From a virus, in IMG/VR virus record IMGVR_UViG_3300018077_000003: a stretch of DNA of 41,854 nucleotides; one strand, written 5' to 3'. Made by a program: the position numbers and the translations under genes. The notes under the pieces were generated by a model. The model was not told the origin of the DNA. It saw only the letters and a program-made list of their open reading frames with translations, and made no database searches. Position 1 is the stretch's first letter. Each line of letters starts with the position of its first letter. This document shows positions 9,951 through 41,854 of the stretch, piece by piece.

Positions 9951-10337
9951 ATGCCCATGATCAGACGACGCCAGAGCCAAATGACCGATGCCGAACGGTC
10001 TTTGGCCCTGGCTCGTAAGGCCAGATACTTTAAGACCCCAAAGGGTCGGGCGGCAAGGAATGGTGTTGTAAGAAAGGTTAAGGTACAAGTTTTTGATCAT
10101 TACGGGCATAGGTGCGTGTGGTGTGGATTTGATGACATGAGGACTTTGACCATTGATCACGTTAACCAAGATGGGCATAAGCATAGAATGCCATCTGGAA
10201 GACGGTACACTGGTTATCATCTTTATGGGTGGCTCAAGGCCAATGGGTGGCCAAAAGGATTTAGAACCTTGTGTCGTAATTGTCAGGCCATAGCGCATGA
10301 CAATTATGAGAGAAAACAGGCACTCTTAGTTCAATAG
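9951..10337 (+). CDS. HNH homing-type endonuclease
   Basis: CVWCG...DHVNQDG...LCRNCQAIAH. Visibly lower G+C than its neighbours. Paralogue of 32803-33267. Confidence 0.85.
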   Translation: MPMIRRRQSQMTDAERSLALARKARYFKTPKGRAARNGVVRKVKVQVFDHYGHRCVWCGFDDMRTLTIDHVNQDGHKHRMPSGRRYTGYHLYGWLKANGWPKGFRTLCRNCQAIAHDNYERKQALLVQ

Positions 10338-25578: not shown

Positions 25579-26154
25579 CTAACGGCCGTTGGGGCCCGGG
25601 GCCATGGTTTCCCGGGCATGCCGCAGGATATCCTCGCCCGTGATCGAATCGAGCCACGGCGTGGAATACTGGGTCAGGATCACCGGGCTCACTAACAAGA
25701 ATTTATCGCGCGCGAAATTAATGTAATCGGTAATCGGGATGTAGGCCATGAAGTTCTGGAGCGGGTGAACTACCCCCAGCTTGTAGAAGACCAGGAAGCC
25801 ACACCATGAATTGCCGTTGGTCGCGTCGTGCCGGATACGCAGCCATTCCACCTGCTGACGGCGCAGATATTTCAATTTAAAGGTCTCGCCCCCCGACTTG
25901 AACTCCGTATACTTTAGCTCGAGCCAGTACTCGTGCCCTTCGTGTGCGACGCTCAGATCCGGGACCCCGAGGGTGCGGGGCGCCTCATCAAGCACTTGCA
26001 CGTGAGCGCCGGTCCCGAACAAGCGCTTGATGACCTCGCCCTGGAAAGACAGTTCATTAAAGATGGACCCCCGGCTCACCGACGCGGGCGCCATGGCCCC
26101 TGCCGGCTTGGATTGCCCATTGAACGTGCGATCTTTCCACTTGCCGGTGCTCAT
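25579..26154 (-). CDS. PD-(D/E)XK nuclease, VRR-NUC-like
   Basis: GVPDLSV...EYWLELKYTE...LRRQQVEWL fits the D...E-x-K plus Q motif. Start placed at the ATG that forms an ATGA junction with the upstream micro-ORF; an alternative ATG lies at 26169. Confidence 0.55.
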   Translation of the reverse strand: MSTGKWKDRTFNGQSKPAGAMAPASVSRGSIFNELSFQGEVIKRLFGTGAHVQVLDEAPRTLGVPDLSVAHEGHEYWLELKYTEFKSGGETFKLKYLRRQQVEWLRIRHDATNGNSWCGFLVFYKLGVVHPLQNFMAYIPITDYINFARDKFLLVSPVILTQYSTPWLDSITGEDILRHARETMAPGPNGR

Positions 26155-26246
26155 CGGTATTTGCTCCATAGTTCAGCTATCTTCCATGCCATGGCGACGA
26201 TCACGGCGATTATCACCATCCATGGCCCCGGTCGGTTGATTCTCAT
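26151..26246 (-). CDS. Micro-ORF, 31-aa membrane peptide
   Basis: Not in the ORF track. ATGA junctions at both ends. MRINRPGPWMVIIAVIVAMAWKIAELWSKYR. Confidence 0.35.
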   Translation of the reverse strand: MRINRPGPWMVIIAVIVAMAWKIAELWSKYR

Positions 26247-26749
26247 TCCTGTACTTCCATGGCCCGTAGCACTTCGGCCACCGGCTCGGCCCACTCTTCC
26301 CCATACTCCGCCAGCATGGCCATGACCTCATCGGCATAGAGTTGGCGCACCTTGGCAGAGTGCACCCCAACCCAGCGGTGATGAATCCAGCCAAGGGCCT
26401 CTAGCTTATCGGCCATTTTAACGAACCGGGCCAATTCGATCGACGGCTCCACGAAGAAGGCATGGTGAAACGGCATCACGGAGGGTCTGGGGAGCATGTT
26501 GGCCTTGGCCGGTGAGGGTATATCCCCGGTCCTAAACTCATCGGCATCATGGAACATGCAGTATACCAGAAGCTGAAGCGCCCCTTCCCGGTTTCCCGGA
26601 GTGCCGGCAAGACCGATAATTCGATCGTACAGCATCAGCGCAATGAGCATTACCCCATACTGGTGGTCCGCAAGGGTTTGCTCGCCGACGACTTGGATCG
26701 TGTGCCATCTGCGGACATGGCGTGATAGAAAGATCTCTTTCCAGTTCAT
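26243..26749 (-). CDS. datZ: HD-domain dNTP hydrolase, DatZ-like (dATP triphosphohydrolase candidate)
   Basis: 169 aa from the internal ATG (MNWKEIFLSRHVRRWH...). LADHQ...CMFHDADEFRTGDIPSP HD motif of the YfbR/DatZ type. ATGA coupling to the upstream gene. The longer 300-aa ORF is a frame shadow. Confidence 0.65.
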   Translation of the reverse strand: MNWKEIFLSRHVRRWHTIQVVGEQTLADHQYGVMLIALMLYDRIIGLAGTPGNREGALQLLVYCMFHDADEFRTGDIPSPAKANMLPRPSVMPFHHAFFVEPSIELARFVKMADKLEALGWIHHRWVGVHSAKVRQLYADEVMAMLAEYGEEWAEPVAEVLRAMEVQE

Positions 26750-27000
26750 CGTTCCTCCAGCGGTGTTTGATAGTCCAGGCCATACTGCTCCAGGCACGCG
26801 ACGCCTAAGGCAATTACCTGCACGATCTCGTTTAACGGGTGGCTGCGATTCACGCTCCCGTAACGGATGCCATCTTCGGCCTCGACCATTTCGCGCCGCA
26901 TGATTCTCAGCCATTCCTTGGCCGTATGCATTTGTACATACATGCCTTGGTGCGCGCGCTCGCGCACGATCTCGTTGAAAATCTCTTCTCTCGTAACCAT
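26746..27000 (-). CDS. mazZ: Small all-alpha MazG-like NTP pyrophosphohydrolase candidate (MazZ-like)
   Basis: 84 aa. REMVEAED and NEIVQVIALGVACLEQYGLD resemble the two acidic helices of MazG-type domains. GAGGAGA RBS. Sits between the purZ-like and datZ-like genes. Confidence 0.45.
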   Translation of the reverse strand: MVTREEIFNEIVRERAHQGMYVQMHTAKEWLRIMRREMVEAEDGIRYGSVNRSHPLNEIVQVIALGVACLEQYGLDYQTPLEER

Positions 27001-27002
27001 GG

Positions 27003-28022
27003 CTAAATCTCCTCAATATGATCTTCCCTCGGTCCCCAGCCCGTTCGGCCCACATGCGCGTATTTATTAATAATGGCGCACAGGCGCAAGGTTTCATTCC
27101 TGGGCACATAATTACAGAAGTTAAGGAAAACTTGATCCACCCCATTCATTCGGATCGCCTGCCTGATCTGCTCCTCAGAAAACGAGAACAGCCGCCGGGG
27201 TAGCTTGGACACGGTTGTCAGCTCCGGCTCGACGCCGATGGATGACCATTCGATCTCTTCTTGATCCCAATACCCTGGCCCGGACCAGCCTACCTGTTTG
27301 CCGTCTTTAAAGCGATTGGCCACCCGGATCGGAAGCGTGCGGGCAACGCCATAGACCATAAAATCAAAGTTGATTGGGATTGCGCAATCGCTCAGGATCT
27401 GATGCACCGAGCAGTCGCGCCATGTGCAATAAGGATAGATACCATTGTTGATGCCCAGCCCGAATCCCTGTGCGGCTTCGACCTGGATGAAATTGGCCCT
27501 ATCTATCAGGTCATTGTACTCCTCGACCGATACCACCGATCCTTCTAGCAGGGTCCGCTGCAACCGGAGCCGGGCTATGTTACCAAGATCCCCGGTTGCC
27601 CGGCGCATCTTCTCCATCAATGCCTCCCCGCCCCCTTTCATCACGCCCCCGACCCGGTAAGCGTATTGGGAAACCAGATGCCGATGCTCGTCGTCCACGA
27701 TCGCCGCATGCTCATGAATATAGAGTTCCACCCCGCCGTCGCTCAATCGGTCCAGCGCTCCCATTTCGGAGAGTAATAGATCCGGGTCAATGCATGATCC
27801 CGGCCCGAGCAGCACCCGCTTTACCGAATCGGACACGAGGCCCGACGGCAGGGCAATACTGACATATTTGTTGCCGAGGGCATCCACGAATGTGTGCCCG
27901 GCATTCGGGGCCCAGGCGGTCACGATGGTATCGGGCTTGAATTTCTTGGCCAGATACCCGGCCAGTAGCCCCTTGCCCTCTGACCCGAATTGCAGTCCCA
28001 TTATTACGCATCCAGCTTTCAT
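27003..28022 (-). CDS. purZ: Adenylosuccinate-synthetase homologue, PurZ-like (N6-succino-2-amino-2'-deoxyadenylate synthase candidate)
   Basis: 339 aa. GLQFGSEGKGLL (PurA has GDEGKG), APNAGHTF, QVEAAQGFGLGINNGIYPY, TTVSKLPRR. Shorter than cellular PurA. ATGA coupling to the polymerase gene. Confidence 0.8.
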   Translation of the reverse strand: MKAGCVIMGLQFGSEGKGLLAGYLAKKFKPDTIVTAWAPNAGHTFVDALGNKYVSIALPSGLVSDSVKRVLLGPGSCIDPDLLLSEMGALDRLSDGGVELYIHEHAAIVDDEHRHLVSQYAYRVGGVMKGGGEALMEKMRRATGDLGNIARLRLQRTLLEGSVVSVEEYNDLIDRANFIQVEAAQGFGLGINNGIYPYCTWRDCSVHQILSDCAIPINFDFMVYGVARTLPIRVANRFKDGKQVGWSGPGYWDQEEIEWSSIGVEPELTTVSKLPRRLFSFSEEQIRQAIRMNGVDQVFLNFCNYVPRNETLRLCAIINKYAHVGRTGWGPREDHIEEI

Positions 28023-29878
28023 GATAGACTCGCTCCAGCCCAATGATCAGCGATCCTGACGTCACTTAAGATGGGCACCCGGCACGAGATCGCGGCGTGG
28101 GGGCCAAAGTCCTCGAGAATATACTTAATTGCACGCGGCACATGCTTCTTACCGCGCGGCACCGAGAAATCTATCTCGTCGTGCACCGACAACAGCATGC
28201 GAAATCCTTGTTTCTTGTGGGTGGCATGAAGTTCAATCATCTTCTGCTTCATGCAATCGGCGCTGGTGCCCTGGAATACTAGGCCCCCCGCCTTATATGC
28301 ATGCGCGGGGCTGGGAAATCTGATCCGACGCCCAAGCATAGTTTTAACGTATCCCCGACCCCGCGCAATGGACGCTGCTTGGTCCAAAAGCTGCCTGATA
28401 CCAGGAATCGCGGAGTGATATTGTTCAAATTTAGCCTTGGCCTCAGGCCCCGCCACGAGCCATTCCCGTCCGGATCGGTCATGCCTGATGCTGAATTCAA
28501 GATCCATTTCCTCTGCCAGTTTGCCTTCGCCCATACCGAATACCAGGCCCAAATTAATTTGCTTCGCGTTGGCAGTGTTGCCAGCATATTTGGCGTCACG
28601 AGGAAGACCGGTGATGGCCGCAACCATCGCATGGAAATCGGTGGCCGGATCGTCACGATACTTGGCGATGAGCGCCGGGTCATTAACATAATGGGCGAAC
28701 CAACGGAATTCAAATTGTTCCCAATCTGCACAACACCAGTCTTGCCCCTCGTCCGGTACGAAACACGCACGCGTAATGAGCGCGATTTCCTTATCACGCT
28801 TCGGGATCTGTTGCAACGCCGGATCGTTGACTGAAAATCGCCCCGTACCGGTCCCCAATTCGTTATCTCCGCGTGTTTGATTGTAATTCGGATGAACGTA
28901 GCCATTTACCTCGTGTCCCAGAATGTGATCCTTGAGGAAACTGCTCGCCTTCACCAAGGTCCGCACGTCGATCACGGCCTGGGCGCGCTTATCCCCCCGG
29001 TCCGCCATCAGCTTGAGTTTGATCTTGCTGAACGACCCCTCGCCCCCCGGCGTATCGTCCAGCAGCACCCCGTTATCCGCCCACCACCTGTCATCCTCGC
29101 CCTTCTTGACGTTGAACAATTTCCGCATCTGCGGCGGGGAGTTGGCGTTAAACTCCTGCCCCACCATCGCGTTCAGCGCGCTCTGTGCTCGCTGTATTCT
29201 GTCCTTGGTCAGGGCCAGTTCACGATGGGTGCGATCCAGGTCCACCCGGACCCCGCCCCATTCAAGGTCAACCAAGACCGGAGTGAGCGCTCGCTCCACC
29301 GCCCACACCCTTTCAAGCTCCTGTTCCGCAATTTGCTTCTCCTGCCACAACCACAATTTGATAGCCAGTTGCGGGTCTTCGATTGCGTACTTACGAGCCA
29401 GCCGCTCGGGCGCGCGGTGAAGGTTCCCCATCTGGGCCTTGCGGGTCGGCTCGCCCCCGAACAGCTTGGCCAGATCACCGTATATGTCTACTTTGCCCTG
29501 GCCCACATACTTGCGGGCAAGCGCATCGAGTGAGAACGATGGCTCATGCTCATTAATCAATGCCGCCCGCACCATCGTGCATTCCATCCTATCGGCGGGG
29601 AACTCGATTCCTTTGCAACGGGCAAATAGGGCATCGAACTTGAGGTTGTGTCCCATGACCCGCCGGCATTGAGGCAGTAGCTTAATGAGCCACGGCACGA
29701 TGTTGGAATTGGTGCGGACGTCCCAGTACCCGCTCGCCCATTCCTTTGTATCTGGGTCGTGCGCAGCAACTGCAACCCCGAACAGTCTATCCTTTTTCCA
29801 GGATAGGCCCGTGGTTTCCACGTCCACCGACACTAGAGGATAGTCGGGCAGACGGGATAGATTGAGTTCCTTAATCAT
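28019..29878 (-). CDS. dpoZ: Family A DNA polymerase with 3'-5' exonuclease (DpoZ-like by context)
   Basis: Exo motifs VSVDVETTGL, HNLKFD, YAIEDPQL. Pol motif A DWEQFEFRWFAHY, motif B RDAKYAGNTANAKQINLGLVFGMG, motif C LLSVHDEI. Confidence 0.85.
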   Translation of the reverse strand: MIKELNLSRLPDYPLVSVDVETTGLSWKKDRLFGVAVAAHDPDTKEWASGYWDVRTNSNIVPWLIKLLPQCRRVMGHNLKFDALFARCKGIEFPADRMECTMVRAALINEHEPSFSLDALARKYVGQGKVDIYGDLAKLFGGEPTRKAQMGNLHRAPERLARKYAIEDPQLAIKLWLWQEKQIAEQELERVWAVERALTPVLVDLEWGGVRVDLDRTHRELALTKDRIQRAQSALNAMVGQEFNANSPPQMRKLFNVKKGEDDRWWADNGVLLDDTPGGEGSFSKIKLKLMADRGDKRAQAVIDVRTLVKASSFLKDHILGHEVNGYVHPNYNQTRGDNELGTGTGRFSVNDPALQQIPKRDKEIALITRACFVPDEGQDWCCADWEQFEFRWFAHYVNDPALIAKYRDDPATDFHAMVAAITGLPRDAKYAGNTANAKQINLGLVFGMGEGKLAEEMDLEFSIRHDRSGREWLVAGPEAKAKFEQYHSAIPGIRQLLDQAASIARGRGYVKTMLGRRIRFPSPAHAYKAGGLVFQGTSADCMKQKMIELHATHKKQGFRMLLSVHDEIDFSVPRGKKHVPRAIKYILEDFGPHAAISCRVPILSDVRIADHWAGASLS

Positions 29879-31131
29879 TTTACTATGGGATTGTCGCCCG
29901 ATAGGATCAGCCGTTGTTTCGCCCTCGTTAAACCGACGTACTGTACCCTCCGCTCGGCGTCCGGGTTGAGCGTCAACTGCTCCAGCACCCGGGCGGGCAG
30001 GTTCAGGTCCAGAATCACGGTGTCATGCTCCCGACCCTTGGCCTGATGGATCGTGGACACGATGTGTTTGATCGGCAAGCTAAGGTCCGCTTGCTCATAA
30101 AAATCGCGCCATGCCGGGGGCACTTCATTGATGATGATCCGCCCCGCTTTCAAATCCCGTGCGATATGGCTGGTCCACGGGCTCGGTCCGCCCCATACCT
30201 CATAGGGGGTCATGTCCTGATTAAGCATGCGCTTGATCTCGGCCACCCGGAATCTGTCGCGGGCCAGAATCAACGCCCCCTCGGGGGCCTCAGCCAGAAT
30301 ATCCAATGCATCAAATTCGCCCCACCGCACAACTTCACCATCCTCGGGGCGGGGCAGCCATGGTTTCAAGATTCGTAATTTAACACCGGTCATTGTGTCA
30401 CTTGCCAATGTGGCAATTGTTCTGGGCACCCGATACGATTGCTCGAGCTTGATGTACTTGACGCCACCGTCATGGAACTTATGCATCCCGTGGGGGTCCG
30501 CGCCGCTCCATTCATAAATCGCCTGATCGTCGTCCCCGGCCACGAATACTTCCTCCACGCCGGAATGTAGCAGCTTATGGAAAAATTTCCATTGCAAGGG
30601 GGTACAGTCCTGCGCTTCATCCAGGCACACCGTGGTATAAGGATGCCCCGCCCCCATGATTTTAGTCGCCCGCTCCAACATATCATCAAAGTCTACGTAG
30701 CCGTACGCCTTTTTCCACCGGCAGTAGGCTTCGATAAAGTACTCGTAGCGGGGCCGGGTGCCCGGTGCGCCTATTTCATCATACGCCTGATTGATGCTAA
30801 TTATCTTGTTGCGGGCAAACGAAAAGCACGCCAGATACTCGTCGCCCTCTTGTTGTTCGTCATCGGTCTTGGTGCGAATCGGCACCCCGGTGGTGGCAGA
30901 AAGTACCTGCATCTTTATCGGGTCCGCCGCGACCGAGGCCCGGCTTAGGTTCAGGGCCTTAAATGCCAGTGAATGAAGGGTACTGGCATCGGCCTGGTTG
31001 GAGCGGAACGCAATCTCTTGCGCCGCGGCCTTGGTGTAGGACAGGCATAGGGCATGGGCCCCCCGCACCCTGTCCATGAGTTCGGTCGTCTTGCCGGTGC
31101 CCGGGGGTCCGTAGATGACGGTTGATTTCAT
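29875..31131 (-). CDS. UvrD/Dda-like superfamily 1 helicase
   Basis: YGPPGTGKT, CLDEAQD, VAGDDDQAIYEWSGA, STIHQAKGREHDTV, YVGLTRAKQRL. Confidence 0.85.
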   Translation of the reverse strand: MKSTVIYGPPGTGKTTELMDRVRGAHALCLSYTKAAAQEIAFRSNQADASTLHSLAFKALNLSRASVAADPIKMQVLSATTGVPIRTKTDDEQQEGDEYLACFSFARNKIISINQAYDEIGAPGTRPRYEYFIEAYCRWKKAYGYVDFDDMLERATKIMGAGHPYTTVCLDEAQDCTPLQWKFFHKLLHSGVEEVFVAGDDDQAIYEWSGADPHGMHKFHDGGVKYIKLEQSYRVPRTIATLASDTMTGVKLRILKPWLPRPEDGEVVRWGEFDALDILAEAPEGALILARDRFRVAEIKRMLNQDMTPYEVWGGPSPWTSHIARDLKAGRIIINEVPPAWRDFYEQADLSLPIKHIVSTIHQAKGREHDTVILDLNLPARVLEQLTLNPDAERRVQYVGLTRAKQRLILSGDNPIVK

Positions 31132-31193: not shown

Positions 31194-32021
31194 TTACATT
31201 TCGGCGCCGGCCTCACCCGCTTCCGGCTCGTGCCCGGCGTCGTAACCGGTCACGTCCATGCGGACATTGCGCTCACCGCTTGCGATCTGGGTGTACAGAT
31301 CCTCGGCGTGCTTGTAAAGGCGCTGTGCAGGGAACCCGGACTGGGCGATCGTGTAGTTGTAGAAGTCGCCCTTCTGATTCTTTTGCATCTGAACCCCGAC
31401 CCGATACACCCGTGCGAACCGATCGCCCCCGGCAAGGCTGACGAACGTATTCCACTGACGGCTGATCTTGGCCTTGGTGCGCGGCATCGGAATCATGATT
31501 TTCTCAGCCTTGCCATCGGTCACGATCAGGCACAGGTGCTGCGGCGTGTCGATGACCATGATCTGGGACTTATCACCCTCGATCGTGGCGATCCGGCCCT
31601 TGGCATCCTCCGGGGTAGCAAACGCCCCAAAGAAGCCGCCGCCCGCCTTGCGCTCCTTCCACACGAGGAATTGCTTCGTGTAGTGGACCGGCACCACAAA
31701 TACCTCGGTACCGTAAAGTTGGCGGGTGACCGAATTGGTCAGCATGCCGGGACGCGCCCCCTGGATGAAGCCGGGGTCACCATCCTTTACCGCCGGGGAC
31801 AAGGCCTGTACCACTTCCAACCTGGGAATGACCAGATCTTCAATGGCCACATGTTCCGATCCACGGCCGGCTCCCGTTGCGCATAGGTAATCGGGCGGAA
31901 TATCACCCGCCACGATCAACGGGCCACCGGTCACGGCCAGAGCCTTGCCCTTATCTACCCCGGATGGGGCCTTTATTTCGAATGCCGACAGGTCGCCGGT
32001 CTTCTTTCCTTGCTTCGTCAT
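31194..32021 (-). CDS. Putative ssDNA-binding / annealing protein
   Basis: 275 aa with an acidic C-terminal tail (DAGHEPEAGEAGAEM). Position in the replication module. AGGAGA RBS. Family not recognised with certainty. Confidence 0.3.
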   Translation of the reverse strand: MTKQGKKTGDLSAFEIKAPSGVDKGKALAVTGGPLIVAGDIPPDYLCATGAGRGSEHVAIEDLVIPRLEVVQALSPAVKDGDPGFIQGARPGMLTNSVTRQLYGTEVFVVPVHYTKQFLVWKERKAGGGFFGAFATPEDAKGRIATIEGDKSQIMVIDTPQHLCLIVTDGKAEKIMIPMPRTKAKISRQWNTFVSLAGGDRFARVYRVGVQMQKNQKGDFYNYTIAQSGFPAQRLYKHAEDLYTQIASGERNVRMDVTGYDAGHEPEAGEAGAEM

Positions 32022-32802: not shown

Positions 32803-33267
32803 CTACTGTCCATACTGCAGCGCACCATGTATCCGCCACGCCCTGACCTGGCAATTTGCACACAGTGTTCTGAACATCGGTGGAAAATTATTTTTGACGA
32901 TCCATCGATACAACACATAGCCAGACATTCGTCGTTTTCCTTTCCTACACTTATACTTATAACCATCTTGATTAATGTGATCCATACTAAGTACCATGGG
33001 ATCACGTTCACCGCACATTTTACAACGTTTACCGTATTTTTCAAACACTAATTTTCGGTCTTTACTCGCCCTCTTTAAACGACTCGCTCTACGACTTGCT
33101 CTAGTACTGGCTATTAATTCTTCTTTACTCTTCCTAGGCGGACGTGGTTTTGGAACATAACTACGTTTACGATATTCCCTCATTTTTTCCCTATAATGCT
33201 CCTTTCTTTGCTCCATGGTAAGCTTTAAGCGATGCCGTCTCCTCCATTCTATCATCTTATTCATCAT
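32803..33267 (-). CDS. HNH homing-type endonuclease
   Basis: CKMCG...DHINQDG...LCANCQVRAW. Strongly AT-rich relative to its flanks. Fills the space between the SNF2 stop (TAA immediately before its ATG) and the promoter exactly. Confidence 0.85.
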   Translation of the reverse strand: MMNKMIEWRRRHRLKLTMEQRKEHYREKMREYRKRSYVPKPRPPRKSKEELIASTRASRRASRLKRASKDRKLVFEKYGKRCKMCGERDPMVLSMDHINQDGYKYKCRKGKRRMSGYVLYRWIVKNNFPPMFRTLCANCQVRAWRIHGALQYGQ

Positions 33268-37296: not shown

Positions 37297-37563
37297 TCAG
37301 AAACTCGGCTCGTTACCCTCACTACGTACATGTCGGCGCATGACCTCTTTCAACAGATCCACGCTAAATCTTACCCCATGCACTGGCCGGGGTAGGTTAT
37401 CGTGCATTTCTCTATATACAGACAACTCACCACATGGGCATTCATATACCCAATTAAACATGAGCCGGAACCTATGGGCGGGGCTGACACCCACTTCTAC
37501 TGTGGATCCAGGCACTTCAGCCATGATACAGGCCGCCACTCGCTGCAAATGGTTCATTTTCAT
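37297..37563 (-). CDS. Hypothetical protein (88 aa)
   Basis: ATGA coupling with the upstream gene. Locally lower G+C. Confidence 0.5.
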   Translation of the reverse strand: MKMNHLQRVAACIMAEVPGSTVEVGVSPAHRFRLMFNWVYECPCGELSVYREMHDNLPRPVHGVRFSVDLLKEVMRRHVRSEGNEPSF

Positions 37564-38353
37564 TTCTTGAGTGCCCTCAAGCGGTTGCCAATAGTCATGC
37601 GCTTACGCCCCGTGTCCAGGTGCGCGTATTTCGCATCCAGTTCCGCAGCGGTGGCCTTGAGCAAGGGCGCCGCGTATTCGTACACTTGCTCGATGGTCTT
37701 GCCGCGCAGTGCCTCGGCCACTTCATCGCCGACGTCATGCCGGCCCGCCCTGGTGCGCTCGGCCCGCTCGACGTCGGCCTCGGACTTTATCTTATGGTAG
37801 CGGGTCTTGCCCAATCGCTCTTCGGGCAGCTTGGTCGCGGCCGCGACAGGCACGCTCTGGATCACGGCCTTGGGCACATGAGCATTGGTCTCATCCGGGC
37901 GGCGAGGCCTATCGCGCAGTCGCACAAAGTTGTTGCCCATGAACCCATCGACGTACCAGATCTCGCCCCGGTACGTAACGACGTCTCCGTCCGTGAAGCC
38001 GGGATAGGTCGGGCTGATGGGTAGGGTTAGTGTGACCGCCGCCCGCACCTCTGCGATCGGGATTAGTCGATCGCCTTTAACGGTAGGGTTAGCTGGACGT
38101 TCGGGCTGGTGTCGCCCGGGCCGACCGGGCCCGGCGAGTTCAAGTGCCCTTCGGGGAACGGATTGGGGATCGGGATCAGGGGCCCGAACTTTGGGTTCGG
38201 CTTGCGCAGGTCCGCAGCCTGCGGCGGGCACCGGGGCCCGGCCACTATCAACAGGTCCCCGAACACGAACATCGTCCCCATTTCCAGGCCCGGGGGCAGG
38301 CTGATCACGAACTTTGGTTCCTTCAGGCTTTGCATCTGTCGCCCCCCATTCAT
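37560..38353 (-). CDS. Two-frame gene: a 96-aa 0-frame product (38353-38063), and a ~264-aa product if a -1 shift occurs at G-TTA-AAG (38081-38075). C-terminal domain is paralogous to 39992-40432.
   Basis: GC3 is high in the 38063..38353 frame and low in the N-terminal part of the 282-aa track ORF. Downstream of about 38075 the coding signal moves to the -1 frame (GDRLIP...GDEVAEALRGKT...KYAHLDTGRKRMTIGNRLR). Confidence 0.5.
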
Positions 38354-38365
38354 CTAAAAAGTCTC

Positions 38366-38614
38366 TCATGATTGTATCCTCCGTGCGATGGCGTTTACGC
38401 GCCGGCACCAGCGTTTACCCGTCTGTGTCAACCGTCCATCCTTGCCCACGAGCTTGGGCATATTGGGCAACACGAACGGGTCCGCCAGACTTCCATCCTT
38501 CACTTTCGCTCGTGCCTTTTTGCGCGGGGTCGTGCCGTCGATGACATTATCCCGCATGGGCCGTGCGCCGAAGGACGCGCCGGCCCACTCTTCCAACAGT
38601 GACTTTTCGCCCAT
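38366..38614 (-). CDS. Hypothetical protein (82 aa)
   Basis: GAGGAG RBS 7 nt before ATG 38614. Confidence 0.55.
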   Translation of the reverse strand: MGEKSLLEEWAGASFGARPMRDNVIDGTTPRKKARAKVKDGSLADPFVLPNMPKLVGKDGRLTQTGKRWCRRVNAIARRIQS

Positions 38615-39991: not shown

Positions 39992-40432
39992 CTACTTCTC
40001 GGCTTTCTTGGTGCGGGCGGCGGCGAGCGCGCCGCGGATCTTGTTGCCCAGGTTCATGCGCTGCATGCCGACGTTCAGGTGCCCATACTTCTTCTGCAGG
40101 TCCTTCACCGTCTGGCCGGTGGCCTTGGCAGCGAGCGCATACGCCTCGTCGAGGGTGCGGCCCGCCAACTTGCCAGCAACCTCGTCGCCGCAATGCAGTG
40201 AGGAATTGCCGGCGGCGGTCTTCGCCTTGGTGTATTCCTCGATGTTGGCCGGGATCAGCCGGTCGCCATCGACAGCCTTCGGCTTGGCCTTCTTGACCGC
40301 GGGTTTGGCCTTGGGCTTCGGGGCCGCGGCCTTGGGCTTCGCGTGCACCTTCGGGCGGACCGGGGTGCCGGTGGGTACGGAGGCCGGCGCGTGACCGAGA
40401 ACCGGCGTGGGGACTGGAATTTGCTCGTTCAT
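39992..40432 (-). CDS. Histone-H1-like Lys/Ala/Pro-rich protein with a conserved C-terminal domain (paralogue of 37560-38081)
   Basis: KVHAKPKAAAPKPKAKPAVKKAKPKA, then GDRLIP, then GDEVAGKLAGRTLDEAY...KKYGHLNVGMQRMNLGNKIR. Confidence 0.65.
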   Translation of the reverse strand: MNEQIPVPTPVLGHAPASVPTGTPVRPKVHAKPKAAAPKPKAKPAVKKAKPKAVDGDRLIPANIEEYTKAKTAAGNSSLHCGDEVAGKLAGRTLDEAYALAAKATGQTVKDLQKKYGHLNVGMQRMNLGNKIRGALAAARTKKAEK

Positions 40433-41731: not shown

Positions 41732-41854
41732 GAAGCGGTGCGTGGCACACTCGGTGATACCCCTGCCGGTGGCTCACGCCAAGGGGGCCGGGGCCGCGGC
41801 TTTCGGCTTCCTGTGCGGCGCGGCGCGGGGTGCCGGGTGCCCGCCGGCAGGGGC
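41732..41854. repeat. Terminal direct repeat, right copy
   Basis: Identical to 1-123. Confidence 0.95.

Follow-up and report, generated by a model that had tools for sequence, protein, structure and literature searches.

A predicted 2-aminoadenine DNA module with an unrelated small helical protein in the MazZ position of a podovirus-like metagenomic genome

The IMG/VR virus record IMGVR_UViG_3300018077_000003, a stretch of 41,854 nucleotides (nt) analysed over its full length and referred to here as the window, carries a leftward block of coupled genes that is likely a PurZ/DpoZ-2-type module for the synthesis of DNA in which 2-aminoadenine (Z) takes the place of adenine (ZTGC DNA), and on this analysis the phage likely makes such DNA. 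Three of its products, a predicted DNA polymerase DpoZ, a predicted PurZ and a predicted DatZ, pass sequence and residue-level tests, and PurZ is also placed by phylogeny. The prediction of a Z genome in an earlier sequence-only reading of this DNA is upheld. The small gene between purZ and datZ is another matter. Its product of 84 amino acids (aa), ORF84, had been named as a MazZ, a name that homology does not support. It is a positional analogue of MazZ with a compatible all-alpha fold, and a MazZ-like role is our best guess.

The pathway that we infer takes its individual steps from characterised homologues, and what we propose for ORF84 and for Z in the virion DNA belongs to the same inference. 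PurZ would condense deoxyguanosine monophosphate (dGMP) and aspartate, with ATP or deoxyadenosine triphosphate (dATP), into dSMP (N6-succino-2-amino-2'-deoxyadenylate), which host PurB and host kinases would convert to the triphosphate of the Z nucleotide (dZTP). DatZ would remove the triphosphate from dATP and so keep adenine out of the DNA. DpoZ would copy the genome, favouring Z:T over A:T pairs by means of its proofreading exonuclease, and the coupled UvrD-like helicase probably works with it. ORF84 may cleave deoxyguanosine triphosphate (dGTP), and perhaps dATP, to the monophosphate and so provide PurZ with dGMP in the way that MazZ does.

The coupled block and its predicted Z-DNA enzymes

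The listing of open reading frames (ORFs) contains the four leftward genes that had been described, for the polymerase (619 aa), an adenylosuccinate-synthetase homologue (339 aa), ORF84 and an HD hydrolase (Table 1). One boundary needs correction: the HD protein is 168 rather than 169 aa long, its gene occupying 26243-26749 with the ATG one codon in from 26752, as is also the case in gene calls made independently on identical public contigs. The tight junctions, either ATGA or 2 nt, are present wherever they had been reported. ATGA start/stop overlaps link helicase and dpoZ, dpoZ and purZ, and ORF84 and the HD gene; purZ and ORF84 are separated by a 2-nt spacer (TAG-CC-ATG); and the ribosome-binding sites GAGGAG and GGAGGA lie ahead of ORF84 and the HD gene. 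Because the helicase gene, too, is joined to dpoZ by an ATGA overlap, the coupled unit comprises five genes, reading leftward from 31131 to 26243: UvrD-like helicase, PolA polymerase, adenylosuccinate-synthetase homologue, ORF84 and HD hydrolase. Isolated Z-phages and related metagenomic contigs keep the gene order, and the block is thus not a chance pattern. The HD frame stays open for ~400 nt upstream of its true start, generating a spurious 300-aa ORF (26243-27145, minus strand) across ORF84 and the last part of purZ, an artefact of high G+C content that could mislead automatic gene callers.

The assignment of the polymerase to the phiVC8-like DpoZ clade (DpoZ-2) is a solid prediction from its sequence. 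It scores 694.4 bits on the NCBIfam model NF038380 (phage_DpoZ_1, cut-off 500) with a full-length match (residues 13-617), and at most 230 bits on PolA models. Its best solved relative is the phiVC8 DpoZ (PDB 7pbk), at 415 bits versus 136 for Klenow. When aligned to 7pbk, it displays NLGLVF in helix O (equivalents of L455 and F459), YKAGG (G548, the motif-6 Gly) and TRKAQM in the exonuclease helix E2 (equivalents of R161 and M165), and its residues span insertions 1-3; all of these are hallmarks of the phiVC8-like clade (PMC8599892). The S583 position, which is not clade-specific, is occupied by Glu. As had been read from the sequence, this is a PolA-type polymerase with a proofreading exonuclease: the motifs DVE (Exo I), NLKFD (Exo II) and YAIED (Exo III) are intact (Pfam DNA_pol_A_exo1, 1.7e-8), and the polymerase motifs read DWEQFEFR and HDE.

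The adenylosuccinate-synthetase homologue is, with similarly solid sequence support, a predicted PurZ, that is, a synthase acting on dGMP, aspartate and ATP or dATP. Its best solved relatives are the PurZ proteins of S-2L (7odx, 241 bits) and phiVC8 (6fm1, 211 bits), with archaeal and bacterial PurA at 88 bits or less, and it matches phrog_1211 at 1.3e-71. Scores from tblastn fall into tiers, with PurZ-type phages at 217-282 bits (39-44% identity), actinophage PurZ0 at 85-109 bits and bacterial PurA at ~60 bits. The P-loop QFGSEGKG, which reads QWGDEGKG in Escherichia coli PurA, carries Ser14 in place of the catalytic Asp13 of PurA (S14 in phiVC8, S23 in S-2L). All phage PurZ/PurZ0 sequences (100%) have this Ser, and 99% of PurA have Asp (PMC12884076). 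The stretch FLNFCNY, which includes the adenine-stacking N-F-x-(N/Q)-Y (F295/Y298 in phiVC8), is identical to that of phiVC8, and the aspartate loop reads TTVSK rather than TTVTK, a Thr to Ser change at the fourth position; both NFCNY and TTV(S/T)K are recognised PurZ motifs (PMC8342488; 10.1101/2025.10.22.683976). We built a neighbour-joining tree (200 bootstraps) from 12 taxa, in which E. coli PurA was the outgroup to eight PurZ and three PurZ0, with no archaeal PurA. The window protein and a metagenomic relative form a pair with 100% support inside a PurZ clade that itself has 100% support, and PurZ0 makes up a separate 100% clade. Profile comparison and phylogeny thus both sustain the earlier call of PurZ over PurA, and place the window sequence on a predicted deep, separate PurZ branch.

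The HD hydrolase is also solidly supported by sequence as DatZ, a predicted dATP triphosphohydrolase. It matches phrog_7076 (dATP triphosphohydrolase) at 1.6e-15 and the Pfam YfbR-like family at 3.1e-10, and its PDB ranking is led, by a modest margin, by S-2L DatZ (6zpa, 1.5e-6), followed by YfbR (6e-4) and OxsA (1.5e-3). The RRWH...HDADEFRTGDIP signature noted previously is present. The metal ligands H30, H68, D69 and D115 align with H34, H66, D67 and D119 of S-2L, and the phosphate contacts R15, K83 and K112 with R19, K81 and K116. W16, the equivalent of S-2L W20, is conserved, as is S-2L P79. In the S-2L enzyme, for which the metal ligands and phosphate contacts have been defined, W20 excludes the 2'-OH and I22 the purine 2-amino group (PMC8065100). 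The family comparison therefore agrees with the DatZ assignment of the sequence-only reading.

The protein in the MazZ position

So, is ORF84 a MazZ? Homology provides no sign of it. The single sequence has no match in Pfam, PHROGs, NCBIfam or PDB, and a profile of its family (81 sequences) has none in Pfam or PDB. Comparing the family by hhalign yields probabilities of 0.2% against a 29-sequence MazZ-1 profile, 3.1% (ZP6) and 0.5% (phiVC8) against MazZ-2, 0.3% against the DUF5664-DUF550 protein of SH-Ab 15497 and 0.5% against the DUF550 protein of BUCT555, and the family profile is non-significant against S-2L MazZ. Hidden Markov model (HMM) scores of ORF84 with MazZ-type proteins range from -0.6 to 1.5 bits (MazZ-1 -0.2, MazZ-2 1.3-1.5), and BLASTP returns no alignment with phiVC8 p26 or ZP6 MazG. 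Of the MazZ-1 residues sought in ORF84, D53 has Gln as its equivalent, and D60 and R83 have no identified counterpart. The known occupants of the slot are recognisable: S-2L MazZ-1 as PF04447 (2e-11), the SH-Ab 15497 protein as PF18909 plus PF04447, and ZP6 MazG, which is 49% identical to phiVC8 p26 (MazZ-2), by a hit to Pfam PRA-PH/MazG. The name mazZ for this gene is not supported, given no detectable homology to MazZ-1, MazZ-2 or DUF5664 (0.2-3.1% by hhalign), and the label 'MazG-like' was an interpretation, since no profile library recognises the protein. ORF84 belongs to an unrelated family, an outcome that the sequence-only reading itself had listed as counting against its proposal. Czernecki et al. 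2021 described the Z-cluster as co-varying datZ, mazZ and purZ; in the window, datZ and purZ do flank a gene, but one of neither the MazZ-1 nor the MazZ-2 type.

Two simple ways around this result were rejected. A canonical MazZ encoded elsewhere is ruled out, as the genome is complete (see below), a six-frame HMM search of it finds no homologue of MazZ-1, MazZ-2 or DUF5664-DUF550, and a Pfam pass over 32 further ORFs of the window finds no dUTPase, NDT or MazG. With these searches empty, the phage lacks every dGTP/dATP pyrophosphohydrolase so far described in Z-phages. Nor is ORF84 a non-gene: its identity across three further lineages is 55-65%, a ribosome-binding site of its own precedes it, and it has a G+C fraction of 0.69 at third codon positions (GC3) versus 0.33 at second positions (GC2).

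ORF84 belongs to a large family. A word-indexed search recovers three close relatives and an exhaustive HMMER search 408 representatives; the family holds at least 408 clusters at 50% identity. Alignments of 81 and 205 members were used. Of the 81, 65 match phrog_2831, a group of unknown function. The family fills the slot between purZ and the HD gene in four lineages: the window; loci L004, L005 and L006, with PurZ 65% identical to that of the window; L012, with PurZ ~61% and DatZ 74% identical; and L020, with PurZ 51% identical and bearing the canonical GSTGKG, and DatZ 27% identical and bearing the canonical W-x-I. The window and the three Z-clusters closest to it have lost a QDxKWG loop that is otherwise common in the family. 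L004 (974-1225), L005 (1583-1834) and L006 (956-1207) encode, between the ORF84 homologue and datZ, an extra 83-aa protein that the window does not have; as a hidden MazZ it was discarded, the L004 copy having no Pfam match.

An AlphaFold2 model computed from the 81-sequence alignment has a predicted local distance difference test (pLDDT) score of 94.5, a predicted template modelling score of 0.82, and three helices (residues 4-19, 27-47 and 55-73), in line with the all-alpha protein that had been anticipated. A first model, from a three-sequence alignment, had reached a pLDDT of 67 and gave an uninformative fold search. Foldseek comparison of the better model with PDB and BFVD returns no match with E ≤ 0.001. 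The best match is iMazG (2q5z; E = 1.4, probability 0.80, template modelling score 0.56), and the top lists, likewise non-significant, consist mostly of iMazG, Bacillus MazG, HisE, dimeric dUTPases and S-2L MazZ in PDB, and of phage proteins named 'pyrophosphatase', 'NTP-PPase_u5' and 'MazG-like' in BFVD. A three-helix monomer carries little fold information.

Conservation among 205 members is concentrated at E14 (99%), R15 (92%) and Q18 (98%) on helix 1, E37 (89%), E40 (91%) and A41 (95%) on helix 2, and E58 (97%), Q61 (95%), C69 (88%) and G74 (91%) assigned to helix 3. ORF84 resembles the all-alpha nucleoside triphosphate (NTP) pyrophosphohydrolases of the MazG, HisE and dimeric dUTPase type in being small and all-helical, with acidic pairs at i and i+3 on consecutive helices. 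MazG motifs are spaced 12-28 residues apart, and the 18 residues that separate E37/E40 from E58/Q61 lie inside this range. ORF84 differs from these enzymes in its last ligand, which is Gln and not Asp, in having three helices only, and in an extra invariant ER..Q motif on helix 1. The arrangement E37-x2-E40...E58-x2-Q61 parallels the ligands E35, E38, E50 and D53 of S-2L MazZ (PMC8342488).

On this basis we lean slightly towards ORF84 being a divergent or convergent all-alpha deoxynucleoside or nucleoside triphosphate pyrophosphohydrolase with a MazZ-like role, because its position is kept across divergent clusters, it is coupled to both neighbours, its acidic residues look catalytic and there are hints from its fold. 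Several points weigh on the other side. The fourth MazG-type metal ligand is changed from Asp to Gln in 95% of the family, the three helices offer no obvious counterpart to the C-terminal region of S-2L MazZ with R83, and no significant sequence, profile or fold link ties the protein to any NTP pyrophosphatase. Pyrophosphohydrolase labels do occur in the family: gp039 of the T5-like Pantoea phage AAS21 (L007, 2956-3252), which belongs to it at an hhalign probability of 97.9% and carries EEvGE, bears the annotation of a putative NTP pyrophosphohydrolase, and a JGI protein of the family goes under the name NTP pyrophosphatase. These independent labels are themselves only predictions. Most members reside in non-Z phages without nucleotide-metabolism neighbours, and the more distant ones lie among early genes, with no PurZ. 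In non-Z T5-like phages the family adjoins DprA-like and NAD-ligase genes.

The same observations feed a rival that is quite possible, if appreciably short of an even chance: the Z pathway is real and ORF84 is not an enzyme but a regulator, an inhibitor of a host enzyme, an anti-defence protein or a replication accessory, with dGMP provided by host metabolism or by degradation of host DNA. Beyond the missing homology, the Gln ligand and the wide distribution among early genes of unknown function in non-Z phages, it can draw on the domain fusions of 10 long family members, which involve HNH/AP2 and Clp_N only and are uninformative, and on the other 83-aa gene of unknown function held in the same interval by a related cluster. 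In addition, some Z is incorporated in E. coli when purZ is present by itself or together with datZ (PMC8342488), so MazZ is helpful rather than essential. A non-enzymatic ORF84 is harder to reconcile with a slot that is retained in four Z-cluster lineages despite DatZ identities down to 27%, with translational coupling on both sides, and with an invariant acidic ExxE...ExxQ layout that is typical of catalytic sites and not of structural helices. Moreover, every previously analysed phage with datZ and purZ has a pyrophosphohydrolase in exactly this slot (PMC8342488).

If the pyrophosphohydrolase role of ORF84 is taken a step further, the protein and its relatives in the slot may be a third class of dGTP/dATP pyrophosphohydrolase, recruited independently of the other two, that serves Z-DNA synthesis ('MazZ-3'), a tentative proposal with a little less than an even chance of being right. 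Were it true, the three-helix fold with ExxE...ExxQ and ER..Q would either add a branch to the all-alpha NTP-pyrophosphatase superfamily or mimic it by convergence. Family members in ordinary phages, such as gp039 of AAS21, would be an unrecognised enzyme of the nucleotide pool. In the window lineage the class would be paired with a W-x-T form of DatZ, the published form being W-x-I.

Extent of adenine replacement

Some features of the better-supported proteins weigh against the main reading. At the position of S-2L DatZ I22 the window has T18, in an RWHT motif that it has in common with L004 and L012. The I22A mutant of S-2L DatZ has relaxed dATP specificity (PMC8065100), so with Thr at this position dATP selectivity is not guaranteed. 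The W20-I22 combination is exclusive to contigs enriched for dZ, and Thr or Ser at position 22 mostly accompanies Tyr20 and not Trp20 (10.1101/2025.10.22.683976). DatZ also matches 6zpa only at 1.5e-6 and is 21-25% identical to the three DatZ/dATPase homologues of isolated phages with which it was compared. PurZ scores 285.6 bits on NF038379, below the NCBIfam cut-off of 300 (PurA models reach at most 117), which we read as marking a divergent sub-lineage and not as exclusion. Its P-loop is GSEGKG, as in L005, and GSTGKG is found in seven of seven reference PurZ and in L020; Glu at this position also occurs in PurA (GDEGKG) and PurZ0 (GSEAKG). Finally, this is a metagenomic genome without a known isolate.

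One alternative is that replacement of A by Z is partial or conditional, or that specificity has shifted, so that virion DNA would be a mixture of A and Z. It builds on Thr in place of Ile, given that I22A weakens dATP selectivity, on the restriction of W20-I22 to dZ-enriched contigs, and on the P-loop and sub-threshold score of PurZ. We regard it as improbable. Thr and Ser at position 22 are prevalent in contigs enriched as restriction-resistant dZ DNA (10.1101/2025.10.22.683976), and the conservation of RWHT across three related clusters implies selection. The remaining catalytic residues are all intact, and a DpoZ with an intact exonuclease is a second layer of A exclusion (PMC8599892).

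A reading in which the synthetase homologue is no more than an auxiliary metabolic gene of PurA type, boosting AMP synthesis in a phage with canonical DNA, is effectively refuted: Pfam does recognise only the generic Adenylsucc_synt family and the score is under the curated PurZ cut-off, but the essential Asp13 is replaced by Ser (PMC12884076), the PurZ structures score 241 and 211 bits versus 88 or less for PurA, the tree puts the protein in PurZ with 100% bootstrap, and its neighbours are a DpoZ above its curated cut-off and a DatZ homologue.

Genome context and comparison with known Z-phages

Table 1. Genes of the coupled block, the nuclease downstream of it and the two HNH endonucleases, with positions in the window.
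Feature	Coordinates	Strand	Evidence or location
UvrD/PcrA-like superfamily 1 helicase, first gene of the coupled block	29875..31131	-	Pfam UvrD-helicase 1.7e-22 and UvrD_C; phrog_1967 DNA helicase 9.8e-71
DpoZ (predicted), phiVC8-type (DpoZ-2) family-A DNA polymerase with intact 3'-5' exonuclease	28019..29878	-	NF038380, PDB 7pbk
PurZ (predicted), N6-succino-2-amino-2'-deoxyadenylate synthase	27003..28022	-	PDB 7odx/6fm1, phrog_1211, tree
ORF84, three-helix protein of a phrog_2831-like unannotated family, in the MazZ slot	26746..27000	-	Family HMM, AlphaFold2
DatZ-like HD phosphohydrolase (predicted dATP triphosphohydrolase), W-x-T pocket variant	26243..26749	-	phrog_7076, PDB 6zpa
PD-(D/E)XK / VRR-NUC-like nuclease, downstream of the Z-cluster	25579..26169	-	phrog_2165 2.1e-8; PD...ELK motif
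HNH endonuclease	9951-10337	+	phrog_2255 and others; in the structural arm
HNH endonuclease	32803-33267	-	phrog_2255 and others; between the replicative helicase gene and a 172-aa phrog_2378 gene

The window begins and ends with an exact 123-nt repeat (1-123 = 41732-41854), as in a circular assembly or a direct terminal repeat. Identical contigs bearing ORF84, all of the 20-50-kb size class, occur in SRR7007123 and SRR7007124, two public runs, and one of them is 41,730 nt long. Given the repeat and these contigs, the window is a complete genome of ~41.73 kb (about 41,731 bp). No tRNA genes were found in it. The expectation of a podovirus-like genome of roughly 60% G+C is close to what was measured (~58%), and the structural arm is of podovirus type, with a T7-type portal/adaptor, a tubular tail protein, an internal virion protein, and Bbp19-like and T7 gp14-like proteins. 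Its nearest structural relatives are podophages of Stenotrophomonas, Ralstonia and Burkholderia, with portals 40-46% identical, and these are not listed as PurZ carriers. The portal family is shared, more distantly, with phiVC8-type vibriophages.

A 73-nt gap separates datZ from the adjacent PD-(D/E)XK nuclease gene that had been pointed out before. The protein has a visible PD...ELK motif and is 31% identical (BLASTP, E = 5e-9) to the 'nuclease' of ZP6, whose gene follows that of the ZP6 dATPase. In PHROGs, phrog_2165 is labelled 'DNA helicase', and phiVC8 p23 has the same label. This looks like a propagated misannotation, because the window protein has 196 aa, bears the nuclease motif and matches the ZP6 'nuclease'.

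The two HNH nucleases mentioned in the sequence-only reading were both located, one of them in the structural arm. Their GC3 values, 0.47 and 0.39, compare with ~0.7 in neighbouring genes, and both have the look of homing endonucleases acquired recently. Should the genome be ZTGC DNA, they must recognise DNA that contains Z. A near-consensus promoter of sigma-70 type (32802-32773, minus strand; TTGACA, 18 nt, TG-TATACT; 11 of 12 matches) lies directly downstream of the second HNH gene and ahead of the 172-aa phrog_2378 gene. Just upstream of the helicase-dpoZ block, a gene at 31194-32021 (minus strand) encodes a Pam3 gp34-like protein of unknown function (PF23977 2e-61, phrog_2402) and is followed by a terminator-like hairpin (31169-31157). 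A scan of the replication arm for promoters and terminators returned the same counts as shuffled sequence. A domain of unknown function, phrog_8941, appears in two early-region ORFs (37560-38408, 1.3e-6, and 39992-40432, 4.9e-23, both on the minus strand) and may have been duplicated.

The Z pathway became known in 2021, and a PurZ-like gene is present in more than 200 deposited phage records, so a further carrier is not news in itself. This one adds to a growing record of functional convergence in Z-DNA synthesis (PMC12884076): PurZ has a single origin, and accessory pool-editing enzymes (so far DatZ, MazZ-1/DUF550, MazZ-2, DUF5664, DutZ and DmtZ) were recruited repeatedly and out of different folds. 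The ORF84 family, in the MazZ slot of at least four divergent clusters, is a cheaply testable candidate for a further recruitment. The slot also provides a functional handle on several hundred phage proteins without a known role. An 84-aa dGTP/dATP pyrophosphohydrolase, if that is what ORF84 is, and a DatZ that differs in its specificity residue would be useful parts for making ZTGC DNA in vivo. The latest survey of PurZ phages has DatZ occurring with MazZ-2 or DUF550 (with or without DUF5664) only (PMC12884076), and we found no mention of a third MazZ type in the literature searched.

How does the window relate to the Z-phages already described? The suggestion that it may represent a lineage in which the pathway had not been studied is correct insofar as a nucleotide search of the block finds no relative among 50,697 deposited phage records, in which no Z-protein is more than 44% identical (tblastn) to those of the window. 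It was overstated in that Z-phages among the Podoviridae, and hence podoviral Z-clusters, have been described before (PMC8342488, PMC8599892), phiVC8 itself being one such case. Similarly, the claimed match in composition and adjacency to S-2L, phiVC8 and SH-Ab 15497 holds for the order purZ, small gene, datZ in the first two. It does not extend to the whole block, as S-2L has no DpoZ and as other genes intervene between dpoZ and purZ in phiVC8 and SH-Ab 15497.

Among the closest known systems are those of Vibrio phage phiVC8 and Alteromonas phage ZP6, which share with the window the signature residues and insertions of the phiVC8-type DpoZ, a PurZ with Ser14, TTVxK and an identical NFCNY, and the gene order purZ, 84-86-aa helical gene, datZ (~170 aa). 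In ZP6, moreover, a nuclease of PD-(D/E)XK type comes directly after datZ, and phiVC8, ZP6 and BUCT555 carry their Z-clusters in genomes of similar size (~38-40 kb). Yet the phiVC8 and ZP6 proteins are just 39-41% identical to their counterparts in the window, their slot gene is a MazZ-2 to which ORF84 is unrelated by profile, a primase gene separates dpoZ from purZ in phiVC8 where the window has an ATGA overlap, and DatZ of the phiVC8 type and of ZP6 has Ile or Met where the window has Thr. With cyanophage S-2L, the window shares a contiguous, co-oriented triad of purZ, slot gene and datZ with overlapping genes. S-2L, which lacks DpoZ, uses PrimPol and relies on DatZ alone (PMC8065100), and its MazZ has 105 aa and two C-terminal beta strands (PMC8342488), unlike the three-helix ORF84.

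Among deposited phages the highest PurZ and DpoZ identities, ~42-44% (tblastn), are to Acinetobacter phage SH-Ab 15497 and Salmonella phage PMBT28. In both, a PcrA-like helicase precedes DpoZ, as the UvrD-like helicase does in the window, and the order helicase, DpoZ, further genes, PurZ, pyrophosphohydrolase, HD protein is the same. The slot of these phages is filled by a fused pyrophosphohydrolase of 290-385 aa instead of an 84-aa protein, and a gene for a DNA-binding protein (single-stranded DNA-binding protein in SH-Ab 15497), absent from the window, lies between dpoZ and purZ. Both phages were reportedly described as siphoviruses by Pezo and colleagues in 2021. Compared with all of these, the window adds a predicted deep PurZ branch with an atypical P-loop, a W-x-T DatZ, direct coupling of dpoZ to purZ, and a previously undescribed occupant of the MazZ slot.

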